Below are positions 28,837 through 41,044 of a stretch of DNA of 64,000 bases, piece by piece. Below the pieces are notes generated by a model, which did no database searches, was not told the DNA's origin, and was given only the letters and a program-made list of their open reading frames with translations. The stretch comes from Chloroflexota bacterium (GTDB lineage: Bacteria; Chloroflexota; Limnocylindria; Limnocylindrales; CSP1-4), in assembly GCA_034666965.1 (NCBI GenBank), contig JAXDKT010000161.1, positions 5,603 to 69,602 on the forward strand, written 5' to 3'. The position numbers and the translations under genes are program-made. The first letter of the stretch is position 1. Each line of letters starts with the position of its first letter.

Positions 28837-31446
28837 CTACTCGTGGTGGGCGTGGCGGCCGCCCGCGCCACCGTGCCCATTCCCGCCATGGGCGCCGCCG
28901 TGCCCGTTGGGGCCGTTGGGACCGGCGGCGATCGACGGTGGCAGGACCGGCAGCAGCCGGCTCGGGTCGGGCAGGCGACCGGCGACCCGGGCTCGCTCCA
29001 TCCAGTCCGCCTCGCGCCGGATGTAGGTCGCCTCGGTCTCCATGTCGACCGCGGCCAGGGCGATGAGGTCGATCATCGGCTCTTCCCGGCTGGTATGCGA
29101 CAGCTCGAACTGATCGCTGTGGCGCAGGGCGTCATAGGGGCAGGCGTCGACGCAGATGCCGCACAGGATGCAGCGGCTCTCGTCGACCTCGTACTTCTCC
29201 AGGACCCGCGGCTTGGGCATCAGCGCCCCGGTCGGACAGGTCTCCGCGCAGCGCCCGCACGACACGCACGGCGTGTCGTTGAGGCTCATGTCGAGGGGTG
29301 TCGTCACCAGCGTGTCGAAGCCGATTCTCATGAAGTCGTAGCAGGCCGCGCCGACGACCTCGGAGCAGACCTGGGCGCAGCGGCCGCAGTCGATGCAGCG
29401 CGACGGCTCGCGCAGGATGAACGCGTGGCTGTCGTCCCGGATGTAGTCGTGGTTGACCCCGGTGAACCGGTTCTCGGTGACGCTCCGGTAGCCGGCGCCC
29501 TGGTGATACGCGGGCTCGAGCGTCTTGAGGGTGGTCCCGTACTCGATCCCGAGCCGGCGCAGGTCGCAGAAGCCGATCGCCTCGCAGGTGCACTGGAGAC
29601 AGCGGGTCGACTCGGCCACGGCCTCGGCCGGCGTGTAGGGGATCTCGTACTCGACGTAGCTCTTGTTCCGGATCTCGGCGTCCATCGCCTTCATCCGGTA
29701 GCGAGGCTCCTTGACCTCGCTGGTGAAGGGCACGATCGACAGGAACTCGGGCTGCGGCTCGGCCAGGGTCTGGCGGGTCTTGATCGTCGACAGGTCGAGA
29801 CCCTTGAGATAGGCGTCGGCGGCGTATGACGCCCGGCGGCCCTCCGCGATGGCCTGCACGACCGTCGCCGCGCCGATCCGGACGTCGCCCGTCCCGAACA
29901 CGCCCGCTCGGTCGGTCTCGAAGGTGACCGCGTCGGCCTTCAGCCGGCGCTGCTTGGTGGGCTGGGGCCCCTCGGAGCCGGGCCCGATCCAGGACAGGTC
30001 GGGGCCCTGGCCGATGGCCAGCAGGACCCGATCGCAGTCGATCGTGAACTCGGTCCCGGGCATCGGCTCCGGCCGACGCCTTCCGGAGGCGTCCGCTTCG
30101 CCCAGCTTGTTGCGGATGAACTCGACCCCGGTCACCTTGCCGGCCTCATCGACGATGACCCGGGTGGGAGCGGCCTGGAAGATGGCCTGGACGCCTTCTT
30201 CGATGGCCTCGTGGACCTCGTTCGCGGCCGGCATGTCCTTCATGTCCCGGCGGTAGACCAAGGTCACCTCGCCGGCCCCCTGGCGGATCGACGTCCGCGA
30301 GCAGTCCATCGAGGTGAAGCCACCGCCGATGACCACGACCCGCTTGCCGGCGTGACCCGGGTAGGGCAGGCCGAGGGTCGCGGTCTGGAGGTACTCCAGC
30401 CCGTCGATCACGCCATCGGCATCCTCGTTGGGAACCCCCAGCTTGTTGGTGTCGTAGCAGCCGATCGCGACCAGGACCGCATCGAAGCCTTGGCCCTGCA
30501 GGTCGTCGAGGGTGAAGTCGCGCCCGAGACCCTGACCGCACACGATCTTGCCGCCGAGCCGCGTCACCGACTCGTACTCGGCCTCGAGGACCTCGACCTT
30601 GGGCAGACGATACTGGGGGATCCCGTAGCGGAGCATCCCGCCGGGCGCCGCGTCGCGCTCGAAGACGGTCACCTCGTGGCCGGCCAGGAGGAGGTAGTAG
30701 GCGGCGCTCATGCCGGCCGGACCGGAGCCGATGACGGCGGCCCGTCGGCCACTCCTGGCCTGGGGCTCGAAGGGCAGCGGCGGATCCAGTCCGTCATCGA
30801 GCATCGCCTTGAGGACCTGGTCGCCGGCGTAGCGGTGGCTGTCCCGGATGGCGATCGCCTCGTCGACCTCGTCGCGCCGGCAGTGCTCCTCGCAGGGCGC
30901 CGGGCAGACCCGGCCGAGCACGCTCGGGAAGGGGATCGTCCGCTTGAAGATCCGGGTCGACTCGCGCCAGTCGCCCTCGGCGTTCTGCTTGAGGAAGCCC
31001 GGGATGTCGATGTGGCTGGGGCACTTGTTCTGGCACGGCGGCAGGCAGTAGGCGTTGTGGTCGCTGAAGATCAGCTCGAGGTTGGTCGCCCGCAACCGGC
31101 GCAGCTCCTCGGTCTGGGTCTGGACCTTCATGTCCGGCTCGCACGCTCGCGAGCAGCTGATCGGCGGACACTCCTCCCCCTCGACCTCGACCACGCACAT
31201 CCGGCACGCGCCAAAGCCGGGCAGCTTGGGTTCGTAGCACAGGGTCGGGATCTCGATCCCGTTGTCGCGACAGACCTCCAGGATGGTCTGCCCCGCGTGA
31301 CCATCGACGACCCGGCCGTCGACCTCGATTCGGAAGCCGGGACTGGCCTGCGGCCGCTGCGGCGCCGGGGTCGTCAGGAGCCGTTCGGCAAGCGAATCCG
31401 GCTGGTCCTGGGGCTGGGCGTCGGGTCTGATGATCAGGTCGGTCAT
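28837..31446 (-). CDS. 869-aa fusion: NuoG/HydA-type N-terminal Fe-S domain ([2Fe-2S] plus His-Cys3 [4Fe-4S]), GltD/NfnB-type FAD/NAD(P)H oxidoreductase, and NuoI-type 2x[4Fe-4S] ferredoxin C-domain. It occupies the nuoG/nuoI slot.
   Basis: ATG 31446 (MTDLIIRPD), 11 nt after the nuoF stop. [2Fe-2S]: PTLCYEPKLPGFGACRMCVVEV...ISCSRAC. H-x3-C-x2-C-x5-C: HNAYCLPPCQNKCPSH. GltD-like: RAAVIGSGPAGMSAAYYL, GKRVVVIGGGFTSMDCSRTSIRQGA, VFGTGDV. Ferredoxin: CIDCGRCAQVC, CVSCGRCAETCP, CILCGICVDACPYDAL...FELSH (NuoI C-terminal-like). Gly/His-rich tail. Confidence 0.8.
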   Translation of the reverse strand: MTDLIIRPDAQPQDQPDSLAERLLTTPAPQRPQASPGFRIEVDGRVVDGHAGQTILEVCRDNGIEIPTLCYEPKLPGFGACRMCVVEVEGEECPPISCSRACEPDMKVQTQTEELRRLRATNLELIFSDHNAYCLPPCQNKCPSHIDIPGFLKQNAEGDWRESTRIFKRTIPFPSVLGRVCPAPCEEHCRRDEVDEAIAIRDSHRYAGDQVLKAMLDDGLDPPLPFEPQARSGRRAAVIGSGPAGMSAAYYLLLAGHEVTVFERDAAPGGMLRYGIPQYRLPKVEVLEAEYESVTRLGGKIVCGQGLGRDFTLDDLQGQGFDAVLVAIGCYDTNKLGVPNEDADGVIDGLEYLQTATLGLPYPGHAGKRVVVIGGGFTSMDCSRTSIRQGAGEVTLVYRRDMKDMPAANEVHEAIEEGVQAIFQAAPTRVIVDEAGKVTGVEFIRNKLGEADASGRRRPEPMPGTEFTIDCDRVLLAIGQGPDLSWIGPGSEGPQPTKQRRLKADAVTFETDRAGVFGTGDVRIGAATVVQAIAEGRRASYAADAYLKGLDLSTIKTRQTLAEPQPEFLSIVPFTSEVKEPRYRMKAMDAEIRNKSYVEYEIPYTPAEAVAESTRCLQCTCEAIGFCDLRRLGIEYGTTLKTLEPAYHQGAGYRSVTENRFTGVNHDYIRDDSHAFILREPSRCIDCGRCAQVCSEVVGAACYDFMRIGFDTLVTTPLDMSLNDTPCVSCGRCAETCPTGALMPKPRVLEKYEVDESRCILCGICVDACPYDALRHSDQFELSHTSREEPMIDLIALAAVDMETEATYIRREADWMERARVAGRLPDPSRLLPVLPPSIAAGPNGPNGHGGAHGGNGHGGAGGRHAHHE

Positions 31447-31457
31447 CGGGCGCCTCG

Positions 31458-32795
31458 TCAGGCCCGTCCGGCGAGGGCCACCGCGATCGGGTGACACACG
31501 CCCGCGGGGCAGGTGCTGCGGAGGAGGTGATCGTCCAGCTCGGGCCGGAAGTATCGCATCGCGCTGGTTGTCGGAAGCGTCGCGAGCCGCTCGTGGTCGC
31601 ACAGGGCCGAGCCCACGATGTCGCTGGCCAGGTCGAGCGCCAGAGCGGCATCGCCCGGCCGGGGGGTCCCCGCGGCCATCCGATCGACGATCTCCGACAG
31701 GCGCCGCGTGCCGATCCGGCAGGGGATCGTCTTGCCGCAGGCCTGGTCGGCGCAGAACCGGGTCAACAGTCGGGCCAGATCGACGATGCAGGCTTGGTCG
31801 TCGGCGACCACGATGGAGCCCGAACCAATGTGGGCGTCGACGGCCCGAAGGGCGTCGTATTCGTAGGGCGTGTCGAGGAGGTCGGGTGGCAGGAAGCCCC
31901 CCGAAGGGCCGCCAACGAGAACGGCCTTGATCGGACGCTCGGGCTCGCTTCCGCGCCCACGAGCGTGGACGAGATCGACCAGGTCCCGCAGCTTCGTTCC
32001 GATTGGCACCTCGGCGATGCCCGCGCCGCCCGGTCCCCGGAGCTGGACCAGGATCGTCCCGGGGCTCGCCTTCGAGCCGATCGCGGCATACGCCTCAGCC
32101 CCGTGGTTCACGATCCAGGGGACCGCGGCCAGGGTCTGCACGTTGTGGACCAGCGTGGGGCGCCCGAAAAGTCCCTGCTCGGCTGGGTGCGGTGGACGTT
32201 GCTCGGGCTGCCCGCGCTTGCCCTCCAGCGCCTTGAGCAGGACGGTCTCCTCGCCCAACATGTAGGCGCCCTGAACGGGTCGGATCTCGATCCGCACCGG
32301 CCAGCCCGTCTCGACCGCGTCGGGGCCGATCAGGCCGGTCTCCTCGGCCGCGGAGATTGCTGCCTCGAGCGTCCGGATTGCCGCTTCGGCATCGGATCGA
32401 ACTGCGATGAAGCCTTGGCGGGCGTCGATCGCATAGGCCGCCAGGGCCATCCCCTCGATCACCGCGAACGGGGCCCGCTCGAGGAGCGTGCGGTCGGTCT
32501 GGACGGCGGGATCCGCGCCATAGCCGTTGGCCACGACGTAGCGACGGGCCTCGGGAGCGCTGGCTGCGGCACGCCACTTGGTCCCGCTCGGGAAGCCCGC
32601 CCCGCCGCGACCGCGCAGGCCCGAGCCGGCCACGGCGGTCACGACCTGGCTCGGGGTCATCGCTCGGACTGCGGTCTTGAGCGCCTCGAAGGCCCCGGTC
32701 CGGATCGCGCTGTCGAGATCGGTGGGATCGCCGCCGTCAGTCGCGGGCAGGAGCACCCGCGGCCAGCTCGAAGGAGTCGCGAGCAGGTTTGTCAC
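31458..32795 (-). CDS. nuoF: NADH-quinone oxidoreductase subunit F (FMN, N3 cluster), divergent
   Basis: GLRGRGGAGFPSGTKW (FMN/phosphate loop), YVVANGYGADP (NADH site, diverged), CGKTIPCRIG ... ALCDHE (N3 Cys ligands). Confidence 0.85.
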   Translation of the reverse strand: MTNLLATPSSWPRVLLPATDGGDPTDLDSAIRTGAFEALKTAVRAMTPSQVVTAVAGSGLRGRGGAGFPSGTKWRAAASAPEARRYVVANGYGADPAVQTDRTLLERAPFAVIEGMALAAYAIDARQGFIAVRSDAEAAIRTLEAAISAAEETGLIGPDAVETGWPVRIEIRPVQGAYMLGEETVLLKALEGKRGQPEQRPPHPAEQGLFGRPTLVHNVQTLAAVPWIVNHGAEAYAAIGSKASPGTILVQLRGPGGAGIAEVPIGTKLRDLVDLVHARGRGSEPERPIKAVLVGGPSGGFLPPDLLDTPYEYDALRAVDAHIGSGSIVVADDQACIVDLARLLTRFCADQACGKTIPCRIGTRRLSEIVDRMAAGTPRPGDAALALDLASDIVGSALCDHERLATLPTTSAMRYFRPELDDHLLRSTCPAGVCHPIAVALAGRA

Positions 32796-33473: not shown

Positions 33474-34820
33474 TCATCGGATGCCGTCCACGACCAGGAT
33501 GGCCAGGGCGGTCACGAACAGGTTGAGCAGCGAAGCGGGCAACAGCCACTTCCAGGCGAAGCCCATGAGCTGATCGATCCGGACCCGCGGCAACGTTCCG
33601 CGCATCCACACGAAGAGGAATACGAAGCCATACGTCTTGGTCAGGAACCAGAGCAGGCCCACGACCCAGTCGAAGCTGAGGAATGCGAACCCGACGAGCG
33701 CCGCCACGGCCACCAGGTTGAACAGGACGAAGCCGATGACCAGCGCCTGCCACAGCTTGACCTGGCTGTTGACGAGGTAGAAGGGCAGGCCCAGGACCAA
33801 GATTCCCAGCGGCGGGATGAGCGCCAGGGCGAACAGCAGGCCGATGCCCATGCCGCTCAGATCGGGCTGGGCCACGATCGGCCAGGGCCAGTCGAAGGGC
33901 GCGTTCCAGCCGCCCATGAAGAGGGCCACCGTCAGGCCCGAGACGATGAACACGTTGACGTACTCGGCGAAGAAGAAGAACCCGAAGCGCATACCCGAGT
34001 ACTCGGTGGCGAACCCGGCCACGATCTCGGAGTCCGCCTCGGTCAGGTCGAACGGGGTCCGGTTCGCCTCAGCGGTCGCGGCGATGAAGAAGATCACGAA
34101 GGCCAGTGGCTGCCGGAAGACGTACCAGTCGAACAGGCTGCCGGACTGGTTGAGGGTGATCTGGTTGACGCTCAGGGTTCCCGACAGCAGGACGATCCCG
34201 ACCACCGACAGGGTCAGCGGGATCTCGTAGCTCACGATCTGGGCCGCCGCCCGAAGCCCGCCCAGCAGCGAGTACTTGTTGAAGCTGGACCAGCCGGCCA
34301 TCAGCAACCCGACCACGCCCAGCCCGCCCATGGCGAAGAAGTAGAGCAGCCCGATGTTGAGGTCCAGGCCGAACAGGCCGGGAGCGAACGGGACCACGAC
34401 CAGGGTCATGACGCTGGCGACATAGACCACGATCGGGGCCCAGGTGAACACCAGCGGGTCGGCCCCGGTCGGGGTGAAGTCCTCTTTCATCAGGACCTTG
34501 AGCCCGTGGACCACCGACAGCAGCGAGCCATACGGCCCGACCCGGTCGGGACCGTAGCGCAGGTTCATCAGGGCGATGACCTTCATCTCCATGTAGATGA
34601 TCAGGAAGGCCGTCGGGACGGTCATCAGCAGGATGATGGTTGCGGCCACGACGAAGCGGACGAGCGGCACGTTGTCGCCCAGGAAGGTCAGGACCACCGG
34701 TCCGACGATGACCACGGCTGCGGTCAGGCCGGCGGCCAGGACGAGCAGCAGGGGCACGGCCGTGAACACGATCTTGCCCGGCAGGGTCAGGCGGCCGAAC
34801 GTCCGACTGAGCATCGCCAT
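33474..34820 (-). CDS. nuoH: NADH-quinone oxidoreductase subunit H
   Basis: 448-aa polytopic protein with the conserved NuoH loop AGWSSFNKYSLLGGLRAAAQIVSYEI and the quinone-site EYxxxxF-like segment TEYSGMRFGFFFFAEY. Confidence 0.9.
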   Translation of the reverse strand: MAMLSRTFGRLTLPGKIVFTAVPLLLVLAAGLTAAVVIVGPVVLTFLGDNVPLVRFVVAATIILLMTVPTAFLIIYMEMKVIALMNLRYGPDRVGPYGSLLSVVHGLKVLMKEDFTPTGADPLVFTWAPIVVYVASVMTLVVVPFAPGLFGLDLNIGLLYFFAMGGLGVVGLLMAGWSSFNKYSLLGGLRAAAQIVSYEIPLTLSVVGIVLLSGTLSVNQITLNQSGSLFDWYVFRQPLAFVIFFIAATAEANRTPFDLTEADSEIVAGFATEYSGMRFGFFFFAEYVNVFIVSGLTVALFMGGWNAPFDWPWPIVAQPDLSGMGIGLLFALALIPPLGILVLGLPFYLVNSQVKLWQALVIGFVLFNLVAVAALVGFAFLSFDWVVGLLWFLTKTYGFVFLFVWMRGTLPRVRIDQLMGFAWKWLLPASLLNLFVTALAILVVDGIR

Positions 34821-35996
34821 CTACTTGTCGACGCCCCCCATGATCGGATCGAGCGAGGCCATGATCGCCATCGTGTCGGCGATGAGATTGCCCGGGGTCA
34901 GCAGCCCGACCGCCTGGAGGTGGACGAAGCTGGGGTCATGGATCCGCATCCTGAAGGGCTGGTCGGTTCCGTCACTGATGGCGTACGTGGCGTACTGCCC
35001 GCGAGGACCCTCGACCGCGGCGTAGGCCCGGCCGGGCCGGGGCCGCATCAGCCGGGGCAGCTTGGCCATGATCGGCCCGTCGGGCATCTCGTTGAGGCAC
35101 TGGTCGATGATCCGCAGGCTCTGCTTGATCTCATCGAGACGAACCAGGTAGCGCGCGAGGCAATCGCCTTCCTGGCGGGTCGGGACATCGAAGTCGAGCT
35201 CGGGATAGATGCTGTAGGGGTGCGACCGGCGCATGTCCAGGGGAACCCCGGAGGCCCGGATGTTGGGTCCGGTCATGCACATCCGGAAGGCGGTTTCGCG
35301 ATCGAGCGTGCCCAGGCCGCGCATGCGCCGGACGAAGATCTCGTTCTGATTGAGTAGGGTCTGGTTGGCCTCGATCTGCTCGGTGGCCTTGCTCATCCAG
35401 GTCCCCAGCCGGCTCATGAACTCGTGATTGAGATCGCCGTTGACGCCGCCGATCCGGAAGTAATTGAAGAGCATCCGTTGACCGGTGAGCGCGGCCAGCA
35501 GCTCGACGATGTCGTCGCGCTCGATGAAGCTCCACAGGATCGGCGTCAGCCCGCCGAGGTCGAGCGCCATCCAGCCCATGAACAGGGCGTGACTGGCGAC
35601 CCGGTTGAGCTCACCCGACAGGACCCGGATGTATTCGGCGCGGCGCGGGACCTCGACGTCCATGAGCTTCTCGAAGGCCATCACCGGGGCCCATTCGTTG
35701 AACAGCGCGCTGACGTACTCGAGCGGATCGGTGTAGGCGATGGTGTGGTGGTAGTCGGCGTTCTCGCACAGCTTCTCCACGCCGCGATGGAGGTAGCCCA
35801 GGACCGGGTCAAGGTCGACCACGCGCTCGCCCTCGAGCTTGAGCACGACCCGCAGGACGCCGTGGGTGGAGGGATGCTGCGGCCCCATGTTGACGAACAG
35901 CTCGCCGTCGCCGAGGGTGTAGAACTCGGCCTCGCGCTCGGTCCGAGGCGGATATGGCGGGATCGGCTCGAAGACGCCGATCTGCTCCTCGAGCAT
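34821..35996 (-). CDS. nuoD: NADH-quinone oxidoreductase subunit D (49 kDa)
   Basis: ATG 35996 (MLEEQIG...); GTG 36038 is an alternative. MGPQHPSTHGVLRVVLKLEGE, YLHRGVEKL, C-terminal IMASLDPIMGGVDK. Confidence 0.9.
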   Translation of the reverse strand: MLEEQIGVFEPIPPYPPRTEREAEFYTLGDGELFVNMGPQHPSTHGVLRVVLKLEGERVVDLDPVLGYLHRGVEKLCENADYHHTIAYTDPLEYVSALFNEWAPVMAFEKLMDVEVPRRAEYIRVLSGELNRVASHALFMGWMALDLGGLTPILWSFIERDDIVELLAALTGQRMLFNYFRIGGVNGDLNHEFMSRLGTWMSKATEQIEANQTLLNQNEIFVRRMRGLGTLDRETAFRMCMTGPNIRASGVPLDMRRSHPYSIYPELDFDVPTRQEGDCLARYLVRLDEIKQSLRIIDQCLNEMPDGPIMAKLPRLMRPRPGRAYAAVEGPRGQYATYAISDGTDQPFRMRIHDPSFVHLQAVGLLTPGNLIADTMAIMASLDPIMGGVDK

Positions 35997-36048
35997 GACC
36001 CGCGGATCGTCCGTGGACGGGACCCGGATGGTCGTCACCGCCGCTGCC

Positions 36049-36600
36049 TCAGCTCGACCTGGTCCGCCGGACACGATCGTCCGGGGTCGCGTCGACCGGC
36101 TCGTGGGTGCGTTCCATGTGGCGGACGCCGCCGCCCGGGGAGCGGGCCGCATCGTCGGGCAGGTAGAAGTCCTTGCGCAACGGGAAGCTGGTGTAGTCGG
36201 CCGGCATATAGATCCGGCGCAGGTCGCGGTTGCCTTCGAACGCGATTCCGAACATGTCGTAGGCCTCGCGCTCCTGCCACTCGGCGCCCTTCCACAGGAA
36301 GGTGACCGAGGGGACCCGCGGATCGTCGCGGGACAGGCCGTCCGCGACCACTCGCAGCCAGTCCGGGCTGGTCGGGCTCCACAGGTGATAGACCGCCTGC
36401 ATCGTGGTCCCGGTGTCGACGCCGCACAGGTCCATCAGGGCCTCGAACCCGAAGTCGGGCTCGTCATGAAGCGCCCGCATGACCTCGGGCAGGTCGCCCG
36501 GCGCGACCCGGATCTCGGTCTCGTCGTGGCGCTGGCGAACGGGCCCCAGCAGCCACTGTCCGAAGCGGGCTTCGAGGCGGCGCCGGAGGGATCGGTCCAC
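36049..36600 (-). CDS. nuoC: NADH-quinone oxidoreductase subunit C (30 kDa)
   Basis: Trimmed to GTG 36600, 5 nt after the nuoB stop. The upstream part of the track ORF is Arg/Gly junk. DLCGVDTG ... EREAYDMFGIAFEGNRDLRRIY ... FPLRKDF. Confidence 0.75.
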   Translation of the reverse strand: MDRSLRRRLEARFGQWLLGPVRQRHDETEIRVAPGDLPEVMRALHDEPDFGFEALMDLCGVDTGTTMQAVYHLWSPTSPDWLRVVADGLSRDDPRVPSVTFLWKGAEWQEREAYDMFGIAFEGNRDLRRIYMPADYTSFPLRKDFYLPDDAARSPGGGVRHMERTHEPVDATPDDRVRRTRSS

Positions 36601-36605
36601 CGGGC

Positions 36606-37340
36606 TCAGACTCCGTCCGGGACGGTCGGCCCGATGGCGCGCTCCGGCCAGTGGCCGCGGCGCTCGAGCACGAGCTGCTGGAGCTTCATCATCCCGTAGA
36701 TGAGGCCCTCCGGCCGGGGCGGACAGCCCGGCACGTAGACGTCCACGGGCATCACCCGGTCGATCCCCTGGATCGTCGAGTAGCTCCGCTTGTAGCGTCC
36801 GCCCGAGCAGGTGCAGTCCCCCATCGCGACGCACCACTTGGGTTCGGGCATCTGTTCCCACAGGCGGACGAGCGGGCCGGCCATCTTGGTCGTCAGCGTG
36901 CCGGCCACGATCAGGACGTCGGCCTGGCGCGGGCTGGCCCGGAACGGGAACATGCCCCAGCGATCCATGTCGTTCTTGGACGTCGCCGCCGACATCATCT
37001 CGATGGCACAGCAGGCCAGGCCCGACAGGAGCGGCCAGAGGCTGTTCGCCCGGATCAGGTCGAGCACGACGTCGGCCTTGGTCGGGATGACCTCGAGGGC
37101 ACCCCAGCGAGCGTCGTCGTGACGGCCGGCGTCGCTGGCTGCGTACTCGCGCAGATGAGCGGCGTCGGACGTGCCCGCGGCGCTGTACGCGGCCGGCTCG
37201 GCCGATTGCCAGAGCGTGTTCGGGACCACGATCGGGGCCATCGGGTCGCGATCGCCGGCGACCGTGAGCGAGCGCTCGTCGGTCGGCTCGGCGGCTTCCA
37301 CGCCGGCCGGCCCGGTCGCGCCCTCGGGCGTCAGCGCCAT
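36606..37340 (-). CDS. nuoB: NADH-quinone oxidoreductase subunit B (N2 cluster) with an approx. 70-80-aa acidic/Ala-rich N-terminal extension
   Basis: SLWPLLSGLACCAIEMM, CTCSGG, GCPPRPE (N2 ligands). Core preceded by MALTPEGATGPAGVEAAEPTDERS...; internal ATG (MAPIVV) at 37241 is an alternative start. Confidence 0.85.
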   Translation of the reverse strand: MALTPEGATGPAGVEAAEPTDERSLTVAGDRDPMAPIVVPNTLWQSAEPAAYSAAGTSDAAHLREYAASDAGRHDDARWGALEVIPTKADVVLDLIRANSLWPLLSGLACCAIEMMSAATSKNDMDRWGMFPFRASPRQADVLIVAGTLTTKMAGPLVRLWEQMPEPKWCVAMGDCTCSGGRYKRSYSTIQGIDRVMPVDVYVPGCPPRPEGLIYGMMKLQQLVLERRGHWPERAIGPTVPDGV

Positions 37341-37687
37341 GTCAGGACACCCTTGCGCCAGGCGTAGGCCAACCCCAGCAGGAGGATCCCGACGAACACG
37401 AGCATGCTCACCAGGCCGCCCAGGAGCAGGTCCCGGAAGACGATCGCCCAGAGGTAGATGAAGATCACCTCGATGTCGAACGCCACGAACAGCAGGGCGT
37501 AGATGTAGAACGACAGGCCGAATCGACCGTGGGTATCGCCGTACGTGTCAATGCCCGACTCGTAGGGCAGGCCCTTGTGGCCGTCGCCACGGTTTCGATG
37601 GGAGATGAGCCAGGCCGCGCCGATGGTCACGATGACGAACGAGACGCCGGCGAAGGCGAACCCGACGACGTACCAGATCCCGGTCAA
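37331..37687 (-). CDS. nuoA: NADH-quinone oxidoreductase subunit A
   Basis: 118-aa three-TM protein; first gene of the nuo operon. Confidence 0.85.
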   Translation of the reverse strand: MTGIWYVVGFAFAGVSFVIVTIGAAWLISHRNRGDGHKGLPYESGIDTYGDTHGRFGLSFYIYALLFVAFDIEVIFIYLWAIVFRDLLLGGLVSMLVFVGILLLGLAYAWRKGVLTWR

Positions 37688-38009
37688 TCCAACCTCACAG
37701 CGGACCCACCCCGGATGCTCTCGCGCCAGGGCGGCGGTTCCATCGTGGCGAGTGGCGTCCGTGCGGCACGGACCGTTCGCGGGAGCGCATGCTCCGCCTC
37801 GACATTCTATCAGCGGACGACCGGGTCAGGCGTCGGCGGGAACGGCGGCGGGCGTGCTGCGACGCGGCGTCAGCAGGGTCGGAAGTGCCGGGGCGGCAGC
37901 TCGCGCCGAGCGCGCGTAGCAGGATGCGAGTTTACCACCCCGGCGCGCGCCAGACTGCGCTTCGACCTGAGCCCGGGCAATAGGGCGAATGCCGTACCGT
38001 GGCCACGAT

Positions 38010-39221
38010 CTAGGCGGGCAGCCGGAAGCGCAACCCGATGAGCGGCGGATCGGGGGCGAGGCCACGACCGAGCAGGCTCACCCGGAAGCCACCCATGGCC
38101 CGCGGGTCGAGCAGCCGGGCAACGCTCGAGCGGACCGCCAGCCACTCCTCGAGGGTGGTGTCCGGATCGGAGCGGATCGCCTCGAGCAGCTCGTCCATGC
38201 CGGCCCCGACCAGGAACTCGGCCTGGGTGGTCAGCCCGAGGGGCGTCAGCCCGGCCGCTCGGGCCGCCCGCTCGAGGGCGCTGAAGTCCACGTGCGCGGT
38301 CAGGTCCTGGCGGCCGACGGCGACGGTCCAGTCGTCGTGGGCCCGATGGGCGCTGTACGCCAGGAGCGTGCCCGCGCCCCGCGCGGGCCCATACAGCTCG
38401 CCCGCGAGGTGGCCGTAGTCGACGATCAGAACCGCGCCGCGGGCCAGCCCCTGGGCCACCTCGCCCAGCCACCCGTCGAGCTCGAGGCAGACCTCCGCCC
38501 GGGCGCCGTCGGCCAGGACGATCCCGTCCGCCGCAAACCGCGCCGCGAGGGCCGGGCTGGACGGCTCACCGGCCCGCTCGACGAAACCACTCTCGTCCCA
38601 GTCGACGAAGAGCTCCTCCAGCTGACCGCCGCGTCGACCCACGACGCGATGGACCGGCAGCGCGTCGACGAACTCGTTCGCCAGGACCGCGCCAACCTCC
38701 TCGGCGCCGGCCTCGAGCTCGAGGACCGAACCGGACCCGGCGGCCTCGATCCGCCTGACGAGCTCCTCGCGCCGGAACGCGTTGAGCTCGACCGGCGCGT
38801 AACGCAGAGCCGCCGCCAGCCCTGGCGACCCGGCGACCCGGCCAAGCTGGCCGCGACCGGCGAGGGCGTCGAGAATCGCCGCCGCGAGCGCCCCCGACCC
38901 GGCGCCGTACTCGCGCAGCACGAAGCGCGCCGGCCGATCCAGCCGCCGCCAGATCTCGTCGAGCTGGCGGGCGATCGCGGCGCCAAAGATCGGATGGGTC
39001 TCCGGCGCCGTCAGGAAGTCGCCGGCCCGGCCGGGACGCTCGGTCGCGCCGCGGTAGTAGCCCAGCCCGGGTTCGTACAGGGCCAGCTCCATGAACCGGG
39101 CAAAGGTGATCGGGCCGTCGGCCTCGATCTCGGCCCGGATCCGCTCGACGAGCGCGGGTTCGCCGGCCGTCGGCAGCGGCGCCGGTGCCGGCCCGCGCCC
39201 GAAGGCCGCCTCGAGGTCCAT
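38010..39221 (-). CDS. MidA/NDUFAF7-family class I SAM-dependent methyltransferase (COG1565, Methyltransf_28)
   Basis: ITFARFMELALYEPGLGYY, GDFLTAPETHPIFGAAIA, LREYGAGSGALAAAIL (SAM motif I). Same strand as and directly upstream of nuoA. Confidence 0.75.
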   Translation of the reverse strand: MDLEAAFGRGPAPAPLPTAGEPALVERIRAEIEADGPITFARFMELALYEPGLGYYRGATERPGRAGDFLTAPETHPIFGAAIARQLDEIWRRLDRPARFVLREYGAGSGALAAAILDALAGRGQLGRVAGSPGLAAALRYAPVELNAFRREELVRRIEAAGSGSVLELEAGAEEVGAVLANEFVDALPVHRVVGRRGGQLEELFVDWDESGFVERAGEPSSPALAARFAADGIVLADGARAEVCLELDGWLGEVAQGLARGAVLIVDYGHLAGELYGPARGAGTLLAYSAHRAHDDWTVAVGRQDLTAHVDFSALERAARAAGLTPLGLTTQAEFLVGAGMDELLEAIRSDPDTTLEEWLAVRSSVARLLDPRAMGGFRVSLLGRGLAPDPPLIGLRFRLPA

Positions 39222-39227
39222 CGAAGC

Positions 39228-40373
39228 TCAGCGACCGCCGGCGATCAGCCGGACGCCGGGCCCGACCAGGGTGTGGCCGCCGAGCACGATCGGGATCGGG
39301 CCATCGGCCGCCGCCGCCGTCAGCTCGGCCAGCCACGGATCGGCAACCGCATTCGCCCCGAGCAGGTCGGACGCGTAGCGCGACTCGGCCGCGGGCCAGC
39401 CGGCTTCGTCGCCCCCGAGCCGGTGAGCGAGCAGGACCCGGCTGTCGACGAGGGCCGCATCGCCGAGCTCGGCCAGGCGCTCGCCCAGGGCGGCCGGGCC
39501 GTCCCGATCGAGGAGGGCGCCGAGCACGGACCGGGGCGGCCGGGGCGGCCGGGCGGGGTCGGCCGCGCCGCGGGTCGGTGGCCCAACGGCCAGCTCCGAC
39601 GCGGCCCGGAGTCCGCGCTCCTCGACCAGCCCACGCACCCGGCAGCGGGCGTGGCGCTCGAGCCAGCCGAGCGTCGCCGCCGACGTTCGCCCGGCGATGA
39701 CCAGCTCACGGCGCGGGTCGGCCATGACCCCACGGACGCCGTCGAGGGCGGCCCGAATACGATTCGTGACGGCATCGACCAGGTCGGCCCGGGGCGGCCG
39801 AGCGTCGGCTCGACGTGCCCGGCGGGCCCGGTTGGTCGTCGCCCGGTACTCGTCGACCAGGACGACGTCGAGCGGCGAATCGAGGTCGACCGCGAGCCGC
39901 CAGCGAGAACGGAGGTCGGCCACCGCGACCCCGGCGACCTCGGCCAGCCAACGCGGCAGGGCGTTGTCGCCCGGCAGCTCGGCCGGCACACGATTCAGGG
40001 TTGTCCCCGCGGCTGCCGAGACGGCCACGATGTCCGCCGAGAAGCGGTTGTTGGCGAGGGCGACGAGTCCCGGTCCGGCGGCCGCCGCGACGAACGCGCG
40101 CCGGTCTGCGCCGGTGGCCAGGGCCAGTGCCCCAGATCCGAGCAGGACCAGTCCCCGATTCGGCGCGAGACGCGCCCGGATCGTTGCCAACCTGGCTCCG
40201 AAGGGCTGAGCGTCGCGCGATCCGGAGATCCGTGCCGTGGCTGCCCCCGCGGCCAGGAAGCCGGTCACGTGGCCCTCGGCCACGGCCAGGCGCGCGGCCG
40301 CGAGCCGGCGCTCGAGCGGTCCCGAATCCGGACCGGCCAGGCGGTGGAGGATGATGACGTCGACGGTGGCCAC
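39228..40373 (-). CDS. hypothetical protein (Ala/Leu/Arg-rich, no confident domain call)
   Basis: 381-aa ORF with GC3-biased codon usage. Possibly a nucleotidyltransferase-like alpha/beta protein (VIILHRLAGPDSGPLERRL). Start and function uncertain. Confidence 0.4.
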   Translation of the reverse strand: MATVDVIILHRLAGPDSGPLERRLAAARLAVAEGHVTGFLAAGAATARISGSRDAQPFGARLATIRARLAPNRGLVLLGSGALALATGADRRAFVAAAAGPGLVALANNRFSADIVAVSAAAGTTLNRVPAELPGDNALPRWLAEVAGVAVADLRSRWRLAVDLDSPLDVVLVDEYRATTNRARRARRADARPPRADLVDAVTNRIRAALDGVRGVMADPRRELVIAGRTSAATLGWLERHARCRVRGLVEERGLRAASELAVGPPTRGAADPARPPRPPRSVLGALLDRDGPAALGERLAELGDAALVDSRVLLAHRLGGDEAGWPAAESRYASDLLGANAVADPWLAELTAAAADGPIPIVLGGHTLVGPGVRLIAGGR

Positions 40374-40426
40374 CGAGCGAGTCTAGCGACGGCGACCGGC
40401 GAGCACGGCGGGAGGGCCGGCCTTCG

Positions 40427-41044
40427 ATGACGAGCGCACGGCGGGCCCGGGCCTATGTCGGCCTGGGATCCAACCTGGGCGATGCCGCGGCCACGCTCGC
40501 CGCCGCGGTCCACGCCCTGGCGGCGCTGCCGGGAGTTCGGGTTCGCGGCGTGTCGCGGCTGTACGCCACCGCGCCGGTGGGCGTCACCGACCAACCCGAG
40601 TTCCGCAACGCGGCGGTCGCCCTCGACGCGCCGTCCGGGCCCGACCCGGCAGTCGGCGCGACCGCGCTGCTGATCGCCCTCAAGAGCCTCGAAGCGGCCT
40701 TCGGACGCAGAGCCCGCGGCCATTGGGGCCCACGCGAGCTCGACCTCGACCTGCTCATCTTCGGGCGGGCCGAGCTGGCGATCGATCGACCGCCGGGCGG
40801 CCGCTCGATCGACGCCCCGACCGACCCGGCCAAGGCCGGCCGACTCCTCGTGGTGCCCCATCCGGAGGCCCGGACCCGGCTGTTCGTGCTGGCGCCGCTG
40901 GCCGACCTGGCGCCCGGCCTGGTGCCGCCGGGTTGGGGCGAGAGCGTGGCCTCGGCTCGTCGCCGACGGGAGCAGGCCGAGGGCTCCGCCGCGGCTCGGC
41001 CGATCGGCGAATGGAATCCCGCCGCCGGAAGGTGGGCCCCCTAG
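40427..41044 (+). CDS. folK: 2-amino-4-hydroxy-6-hydroxymethyldihydropteridine pyrophosphokinase (HPPK)
   Basis: [66 protein letters not shown]. Confidence 0.85.

Follow-up and report, generated by a model that had tools for sequence, protein, structure and literature searches.

A MidA/NDUFAF7-family methyltransferase gene adjoins genes of complex I in three bacterial phyla, with NuoD as its candidate substrate

During complex I assembly in mitochondria, NDUFAF7 symmetrically dimethylates Arg-85 of the NDUFS2 subunit (PMC3829151). Does a bacterium that carries a gene of the same family next to its nuo operon modify NuoD, the homologue of NDUFS2, in the same way? We addressed this question for a stretch of 64,000 nucleotides of a Chloroflexota genome (the window), which has a G+C content of ~70% and whose nearest public relatives belong to the Chloroflexota class Limnocylindria and come from soil and freshwater. 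A first-pass annotation had reported a full-length MidA-family methyltransferase gene on the same strand as nuoA and 322 bp upstream of it, and had read the pair as a bacterial counterpart of the assembly-linked modification. NDUFAF7 and MidA, their bacterial homologues and a dimethyl-arginine in Paracoccus complex I are already known, and the locus is an incremental extension of that work. The genes concerned are as follows.

39228..40373, minus strand: unk381, a conserved hypothetical protein of 381 aa with an N-terminal nucleotidyltransferase-like fold, the probable operon partner of midA
38010..39221, minus strand: midA, a predicted SAM-dependent methyltransferase of the MidA/NDUFAF7 family (PF02636, COG1565), 403 aa, ATG start (ORF list, Pfam, PDB, profile and fold)
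37331..37687, minus strand: nuoA, 118 aa, TTG start (PF00507, E 2.8e-31)
36606..37340, minus strand: nuoB, 244 aa, with an N-terminal extension of ~100 aa (PF01058 at residues 110-220)
36049..36600, minus strand: nuoC, start approximate (PF00329, E 3.6e-38)
34821..36038, minus strand: nuoD, the proposed substrate, start uncertain (GTG at 36038 gives 405 aa, GTG at 36074 gives 417 aa; PF00346, E 2.6e-86, and NCBIfam NuoD models)
35784..35786, minus strand: CGC codon of the Arg in LHRGVEK of NuoD, homologous to the dimethylated Arg-85 of NDUFS2 (motif placement from PMC8042128)
22938..34820, minus strand: the remaining nuo operon, with nuoH, an E-like gene, F, a G/GltD-like/I-like fusion, J, K, L, M and N (Pfam)

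By these coordinates the gap between midA and nuoA is exactly 322 bp, as first reported, and nuoB, nuoC and nuoD then follow on the same strand. Relatives encode a NuoA of likewise 118 aa, a NuoC of ~183 aa and a NuoD of 405-411 aa, and the gene order of their remaining nuo operon is identical. The G-like fusion in this operon is unusual.

Membership of the midA product in the MidA/NDUFAF7 family can be regarded as secure because the sequence, profile, predicted fold and motif evidence agree. The sole Pfam match is PF02636 (Methyltransf_28; COG1565; formerly DUF185), which aligns over profile positions 1-248 of 249 with E 1.4e-50 and a score of 172.6 bits (cut-off 23.3), and which thereby confirms by HMM the family named in the first-pass annotation. 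The family is large, with 11,408 cluster representatives at 50% identity and E <= 1e-3. As a single sequence the protein matched two structures in the PDB, those of Burkholderia (4f3n, E 6.7e-46) and R. palustris (1zkd, E 2.3e-27), while the match to Dictyostelium MidA (5ztz) was confined to N-terminal residues 33-117. With profile A1, built from 27 diverse MidA homologues at 36-53% identity, all three matches became full-length (E 1.4e-83, 3.1e-60 and 3e-52, respectively), and profile positions 12-371 aligned with residues 19-396 of the 5ztz chain, which extends the homology to a characterised member over the whole length. An AlphaFold2 model (pLDDT 84, pTM 0.86) gave the same picture, the top six Foldseek matches being 4f3n/4g67, 1zkd and 5zu0/5ztz at TM 0.69-0.85, all of MidA-specific architecture, and the next being other class I methyltransferases at TM about 0.3-0.5. 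Neither Pfam nor Foldseek found a better match to an unrelated methyltransferase family.

The residues expected of an active enzyme are in place. Motif I is intact (EYGAGSGAL, residues 104-112, in which E104-x-G106-x-G108-x-G110 fits E/D-x-G-x-G-x-G), and the protein keeps D68, T71, G106, G110, N182, E183, D186, H191, D268, G270, D306 and V311, which are invariant across the 27 members of A1. Alignment with A1 and 4f3n also located the family motifs GDF-T, NE--DA-P-H, DYG and QD-TAHV. Canonical arginine methyltransferases of the PRMT1/5/7/9 type gave no Pfam match to the protein and contributed no structure to its best 50 fold matches; NDUFAF7 itself has been described as 'unrelated to other PRMTs' (PMC9006661). 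NCBIfam held no model matching either MidA or the ORF upstream of midA, and literature matches for 'DUF185' in Price et al. turned out to concern DUF1854 and are irrelevant to MidA.

Among proteins of solved structure, the closest relative is the Burkholderia thailandensis COG1565 protein (4F3N/4G67), an uncharacterised 'likely methyl transferase' with 34-35% identity and TM 0.79-0.85, all of whose motifs align with those of the midA product. It was solved with a bound ligand, which we take to be SAH. The alphaproteobacterial homologue from R. palustris (1ZKD) has the same fold at 27% identity and TM 0.69-0.80. Ordered by identity to the midA product, the structures thus run from the betaproteobacterial 4f3n (34%) through 1zkd (27%) to 5ztz (20%); this is an order of identities, the neighbour-joining (NJ) tree having been built without proteobacterial or eukaryotic references. 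As a counterpoint to a transfer of function from Dictyostelium, the nearer relative of the window protein is the Burkholderia protein, which is uncharacterised, and not the characterised MidA.

The candidate substrate residue is present in the NuoD encoded in the window, elsewhere than the first-pass annotation had placed it. That annotation located the methylated Arg in HGVLR, a motif that NuoD does retain (35864-35850), but published work assigns the methylated Arg to the HRGxE motif, where mature Arg-85 of the bovine and human protein corresponds to Yarrowia R121 (PMC8042128; PMC3750175; PMC3829151), and this rules out HGVLR as the methylation site. The HRGxE motif lies ~22 residues downstream of HGVLR; in the window it reads LHRGVEK (35792-35772), within the context ...LGYLHRGVEKLCEN. 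By our residue count, Arg-85 of NDUFS2 is R118 in the numbering of the human precursor. LHRG(V/M)EK was kept in all 42 of the MidA-linked NuoD/NdhH sequences examined. T. thermophilus has Thr64 in place of the dimethylated Arg (PMC8042128; PMC3750175; PMC3829151), and E. coli has the HRGxE Arg yet leaves it unmethylated (PMC8042128); the HRGxE Arg is therefore necessary for methylation and not diagnostic of it, and conservation of HGVLR is no more diagnostic.

Gene linkage offers evidence of another kind. One genome per GTDB species was scanned with alignment A1, and nuo genes were located by tblastn with the window proteins; each scan took the loci of the 80 closest relatives, so that the counts below describe these neighbours rather than an unbiased or random survey. 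Four relatives at 58-73% identity share the entire 20-kb block dnaJ-clpB-nudix-purH-glpX-folK-unk-midA-nuo. Since the whole block is syntenic, Limnocylindria alone are weak evidence for functional linkage; close relatives being uninformative in this respect, the survey was moved to distant ones. Of 28 informative loci in Limnocylindria, 26 have nuoA downstream of midA on the same strand, 72-1521 bp away; the exceptions are L026 and L019, and in L019 MidA is encoded 8 kb away. The purH and glpX flanks shift within the class and the midA-nuoA pair persists.

The arrangement recurs in two other phyla. In Nitrospirota, 14/16 informative loci have midA ahead of nuoA, in the order secA-midA-nuoA-nuoB-nuoCD and at an operon-like spacing of 5-130 bp (L051 has 15 bp). 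In Cyanobacteria midA adjoins ndhH alone, the NuoD homologue, in four of nine genomes and in both gene orders: ndhH precedes midA in L046 (56 bp), L082 (224 bp) and L078 (one ORF between), and follows it in L072 (36 bp). A scan of cyanobacterial metagenomes placed ndhH directly upstream of midA on the same strand in 26 of the 62 loci with enough upstream flank (~42%), with a gap of at most 500 bp in 19 of these 26 and a minimum of 18 bp. Pairs of ndhH and midA are thus common in cyanobacteria, and more than half of the cyanobacterial loci are without the linkage. Synechocystis slr0262 was considered as a possible MidA homologue beside ndhH; the literature gives no identity for it, and we dropped the suggestion.

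Ten other taxa, among them Acidobacteriota, Dehalococcoidia, Thermomicrobiales, Bacillota, Geobacter and relatives, Methanoperedens, Scalindua and Chitinophagaceae, had a nuo gene beside midA in none of 30 loci, with flanks searched up to 10 kb per side. A rough NJ tree of the MidA proteins tracks taxonomy, and unlinked clades stand between the three linked ones. Where a genome holds a few thousand genes, the odds that a given gene abuts a complex I gene are well below 1%, a rough estimate that we did not compute. With odds of this size for each of three lineage-level cases, one of which involves the NuoD homologue itself and two orientations, the recurrent pairing of midA with complex I genes is, in our informal judgement, hard to ascribe to chance. 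Linkage to nuo, on which the first-pass proposal depended, is conserved in Limnocylindria and reaches beyond them.

How midA and nuo are expressed may differ among these lineages. Four further features of the window, all on the minus strand, bear on this:

37978..37996, minus strand: conserved box TACGGCATTCGCCCTATTG, 14 nt past the MidA stop, nearly unchanged across 8 aligned spacers and present once in the window
37890..37940, minus strand: conserved hairpin with a stem of ~15 bp, covariation and the invariant apex ACGCGCGCTCGGCG (RNAalifold, covariance model)
37804..37809, minus strand: TAGAAT, identical in 8/8 aligned spacers; a -10-like hexamer and putative nuo promoter, ~117 nt ahead of the nuoA start
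upstream of the nuoA TTG, minus strand: a 5'-UTR hairpin and a GAGG Shine-Dalgarno sequence (alignment with seven relatives)

For the hairpin within the spacer, RNAalifold found compensatory changes in 10 of 17 pairs across 15 sequences. The hairpin occurs once in the window. Its covariance model placed a single copy behind the MidA stop at the locus of each of 16 relatives, apart from L024 with two, and found none in the L019 lineage, where MidA is detached from nuo. Rfam gave no match at E <= 1 over 37000-41000. A scan of 37300-40700 for consensus promoters and terminators found nothing, and it missed TAGAAT because the hexamer lacks a good -35; this box is visible only through the alignment of the window spacer with those of seven relatives, and we regard it as a putative element of the nuo promoter. 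Since the spacer holds both a conserved hairpin and a -10-like box, midA and nuo appear to form separate transcription units in the Limnocylindria lineage, in which midA probably lies outside the nuo transcript and is co-transcribed with unk381, nuo being an adjacent unit. The gap between unk381 and midA is 6 bp in the window and becomes a 4-bp overlap in two relatives (L002 and L004). The unk381 product had no match in Pfam; its homologues among the matches listed are hypothetical proteins without a Pfam domain, the few named ones being from Chloroflexota/Limnocylindrales, and by tblastn over the sampled loci the gene is restricted to loci of the Limnocylindria type. In Nitrospirota midA is, as read from gene order and spacing, the first gene of the nuo operon.

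Taken with the precedent of NDUFAF7, these observations suggest that the midA product is, on balance probably, a catalytically competent SAM-dependent methyltransferase that methylates an Arg of NuoD. MidA would bind SAM through Rossmann motif I (E104-x-G106-x-G108-x-G110), recognise NuoD either free or partly assembled, and methylate the LHRGVEK Arg, a residue of the β3-α1 loop of NuoD, on its guanidino group. The step would precede the docking of NuoD onto NuoB, whose cluster N2 adjoins that Arg; put more broadly, it would come ahead of Q-module assembly or in the course of it, as with NDUFAF7 acting on NDUFS2. The modification may tune or stabilise the N2/quinone site and aid assembly of the Q module. 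The product at the homologous Arg of mitochondria and Paracoccus is symmetric dimethylarginine (PMC3829151; PMC3750175), and by analogy we infer the same product here, together with the activity of the enzyme, its choice of NuoD and the timing of the reaction. For prokaryotic MidA, function has so far been inferred in silico only (PMC12455994).

The analogy can be followed system by system. Human NDUFAF7 and Dictyostelium discoideum MidA (5ZTZ/5ZU0) belong to the same Pfam family as the midA product and share its SAM motif, and the likeness to the Dictyostelium protein extends from the full-length profile match to the fold (TM 0.72). The substrate Arg has its homologue in the NuoD of the window, and the bacterial gene is tied to complex I by its genomic position. 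Identity to Dictyostelium MidA is only ~20%, however, with TAHVDF here against SVWVDF there, and the midA product, a predicted enzyme, is without a targeting sequence, unlike NDUFAF7 and Dictyostelium MidA. The window gene also adjoins the operon of its presumed substrate, an arrangement that is impossible in eukaryotes. Complex I of Paracoccus denitrificans carries a dimethyl-Arg in Nqo4/NDUFS2 (PMC3750175), modelled at R65 in a structure at 2.3 Å (PMC11522691). This bacterial precedent, from a phylum other than the Chloroflexota of the window, means that the counterpart proposed in the first-pass annotation is not new in kind, although family and linkage hold. We know of no report of midA-nuo linkage in alphaproteobacteria, whose loci lay outside our sample. 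Other methyltransferases have been tied to bacterial complex I, namely an URF7-type SAM methyltransferase of the R. capsulatus nuo cluster and the CI-PIMT subunit of Paracoccus (PMC9036352; PMC11522691). The URF7-type protein, at 257 aa, is far shorter than members of the MidA family and its role is an in-silico prediction only (PMC9036352), and CI-PIMT is an L-isoaspartyl-O-methyltransferase, a different class of enzyme from MidA (PMC11522691).

Position beside nuo might instead be inherited synteny without functional meaning, the enzyme having other or broader substrates among proteins or small molecules. The 20-kb neighbourhood kept in Limnocylindria fits this explanation, as do the apparent operon of midA with an unrelated NTP-transferase-like gene, the hairpin and putative promoter that separate midA from nuoA, and the ten taxa that lack the linkage. 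It would have to accommodate, however, a Nitrospirota adjacency that occurs in a different context, secA-midA-nuoA with short gaps, a cyanobacterial partner that is specifically ndhH in both gene orders, and Limnocylindria loci in which purH and glpX move while midA stays with nuoA; we consider it unlikely. Less probable again is that MidA serves complex I by targeting a different subunit or, without catalysis, as an assembly chaperone. It is true that midA adjoins nuoA and not nuoD in Limnocylindria and Nitrospirota, but in cyanobacteria the pairing is with ndhH alone. The window protein keeps its SAM-binding and family-invariant residues intact, and a methyltransferase-deficient mutant of Dictyostelium MidA failed to rescue the knockout (PMC9006661); the sole characterised members of the family, moreover, methylate NDUFS2 (PMC3829151).

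A third proposal comes from Wolbachia, for whose MidA a role as a nucleic-acid (DNA) methyltransferase altering gene expression has tentatively been put forward: E. coli expressing the protein had 166 methylated bases, a result that the authors call preliminary, and the same study reported no conserved target motif (PMC12455994). For the window protein this seems very improbable. PF02636 is the sole Pfam domain, so that Pfam gives no sign of a separate target-recognition domain; the predicted fold places the protein with MidA-family entries only, and DNA methylation would not account for the pairing of midA with genes of complex I in three phyla. Methylation of NuoD by MidA is the reading that we retain.

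It is a serious possibility, if somewhat short of a probable one, that arginine methylation of NuoD/NdhH by MidA-family enzymes is widespread and perhaps ancient, reaching beyond proteobacteria and mitochondria to Chloroflexota, Nitrospirota and the ferredoxin-dependent photosynthetic NDH-1 of cyanobacteria. No paper retrieved by full-text search tied NdhH to arginine methylation or to any other post-translational modification. In a search for NDUFAF7 in connection with a nuoA operon or gene neighbourhood, Nitrospira and cyanobacteria, none of the best 15 of 783 matches contained NDUFAF7. The papers examined on cyanobacterial NDH-1 structures contained no word beginning with 'methyl'.

What the comparison adds is an enzyme-substrate prediction drawn from gene neighbourhood in three non-proteobacterial phyla, photosynthetic NDH-1 included. 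The midA-nuoA and ndhH-midA pairs are independent genomic evidence for the relationship between enzyme and substrate, and they indicate where the modification is to be expected, namely in Nitrospira proteomes, in maps of cyanobacterial NDH-1 and in Limnocylindria. Pairing of midA with complex I genes in three phyla thus predicts, without proving, widespread arginine methylation of bacterial complex I. In mitochondria the modification is hard to disentangle from assembly defects. Dimethyl-Arg beside N2 may have a part in assembly or may tune N2 and the quinone site, and if the prediction is true, these bacteria would provide genetically tractable models for studying the modification apart from the residue that carries it.

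In the window the nuo operon has an unusual gene order, A-B-C-D-H-E-F-fusion-J-K-L-M-N, which recurs in four related loci with the same neighbourhood (L001-L004). Three of its genes encode products of atypical size or domain composition:

28837-31602, minus strand: fusion gene in the NuoG position, identified by domain matches
33474-34820, minus strand: nuoH, long product of 448 aa
36606-37340, minus strand: nuoB, long product of 244 aa

The conserved domain of NuoB begins only at residue 110 of 244, and the relatives repeat the long sizes of both NuoB and NuoH. The protein in the NuoG position, 872-921 aa long in the window and L001-L004, carries an N-terminal NuoG-type 2Fe-2S domain (Fer2_4), a central GltD/NfnB-like flavoprotein module (Fer4_20 and Pyr_redox_2) and a C-terminal NuoI-like 2x[4Fe-4S] domain. 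The domain arrangement is the same in all four relatives. Across this set, the domain search gave no match to a molybdopterin-like domain in the fusion, and no separate nuoI was found.

Same-strand ndhH-midA pairs, ndhH being the nuoD homologue, are frequent in Cyanobacteria (genome loci L046, L072, L078 and L082, and 26 of the metagenome loci L086-L165), with gaps as small as 18 bp; in Aphanocapsa (L072) the order of the two genes is reversed. Literature searches found no report of NdhH arginine methylation. In Nitrospira, midA heads a nuo operon in which NuoC and NuoD are fused, an arrangement repeated in other Nitrospirota loci, and secA lies on the same strand as midA a few kb upstream:

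L051 12275-14029, plus strand: fused NuoCD gene, 584 aa

The spacer between MidA and nuoA in the window contains the following elements:

37890-37996, minus strand: conserved box TACGGCATTCGCCCTATTG and covarying hairpin
37804-37809, minus strand: -10-like TAGAAT, invariant, ~117 nt upstream of nuoA
about 37754-37776, minus strand: 5'-UTR hairpin GGTCCGTGC...GCACGGAC, downstream of TAGAAT
37684-37743, minus strand: putative upstream ORF of 19 codons (start codon ATG 37743) within the nuoA leader

A consensus promoter scan of the spacer region did not pick up TAGAAT. The 5'-UTR hairpin shows compensatory changes in L002. The TGA stop of the upstream ORF overlaps the TTG start codon of nuoA, and the spacer alignment contains in-frame counterparts in relatives L001, L006 and L002; this ORF may be a chance product of GC-rich sequence. 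The hairpin listed with the conserved box has a covarying stem of ~15 bp with an invariant apex, ACGCGCGCTCGGCG, is without an Rfam match and occurs once in the window. A covariance model search placed it 3' of the MidA stop codon in 16 related loci; it may act as a terminator or have a regulatory function.
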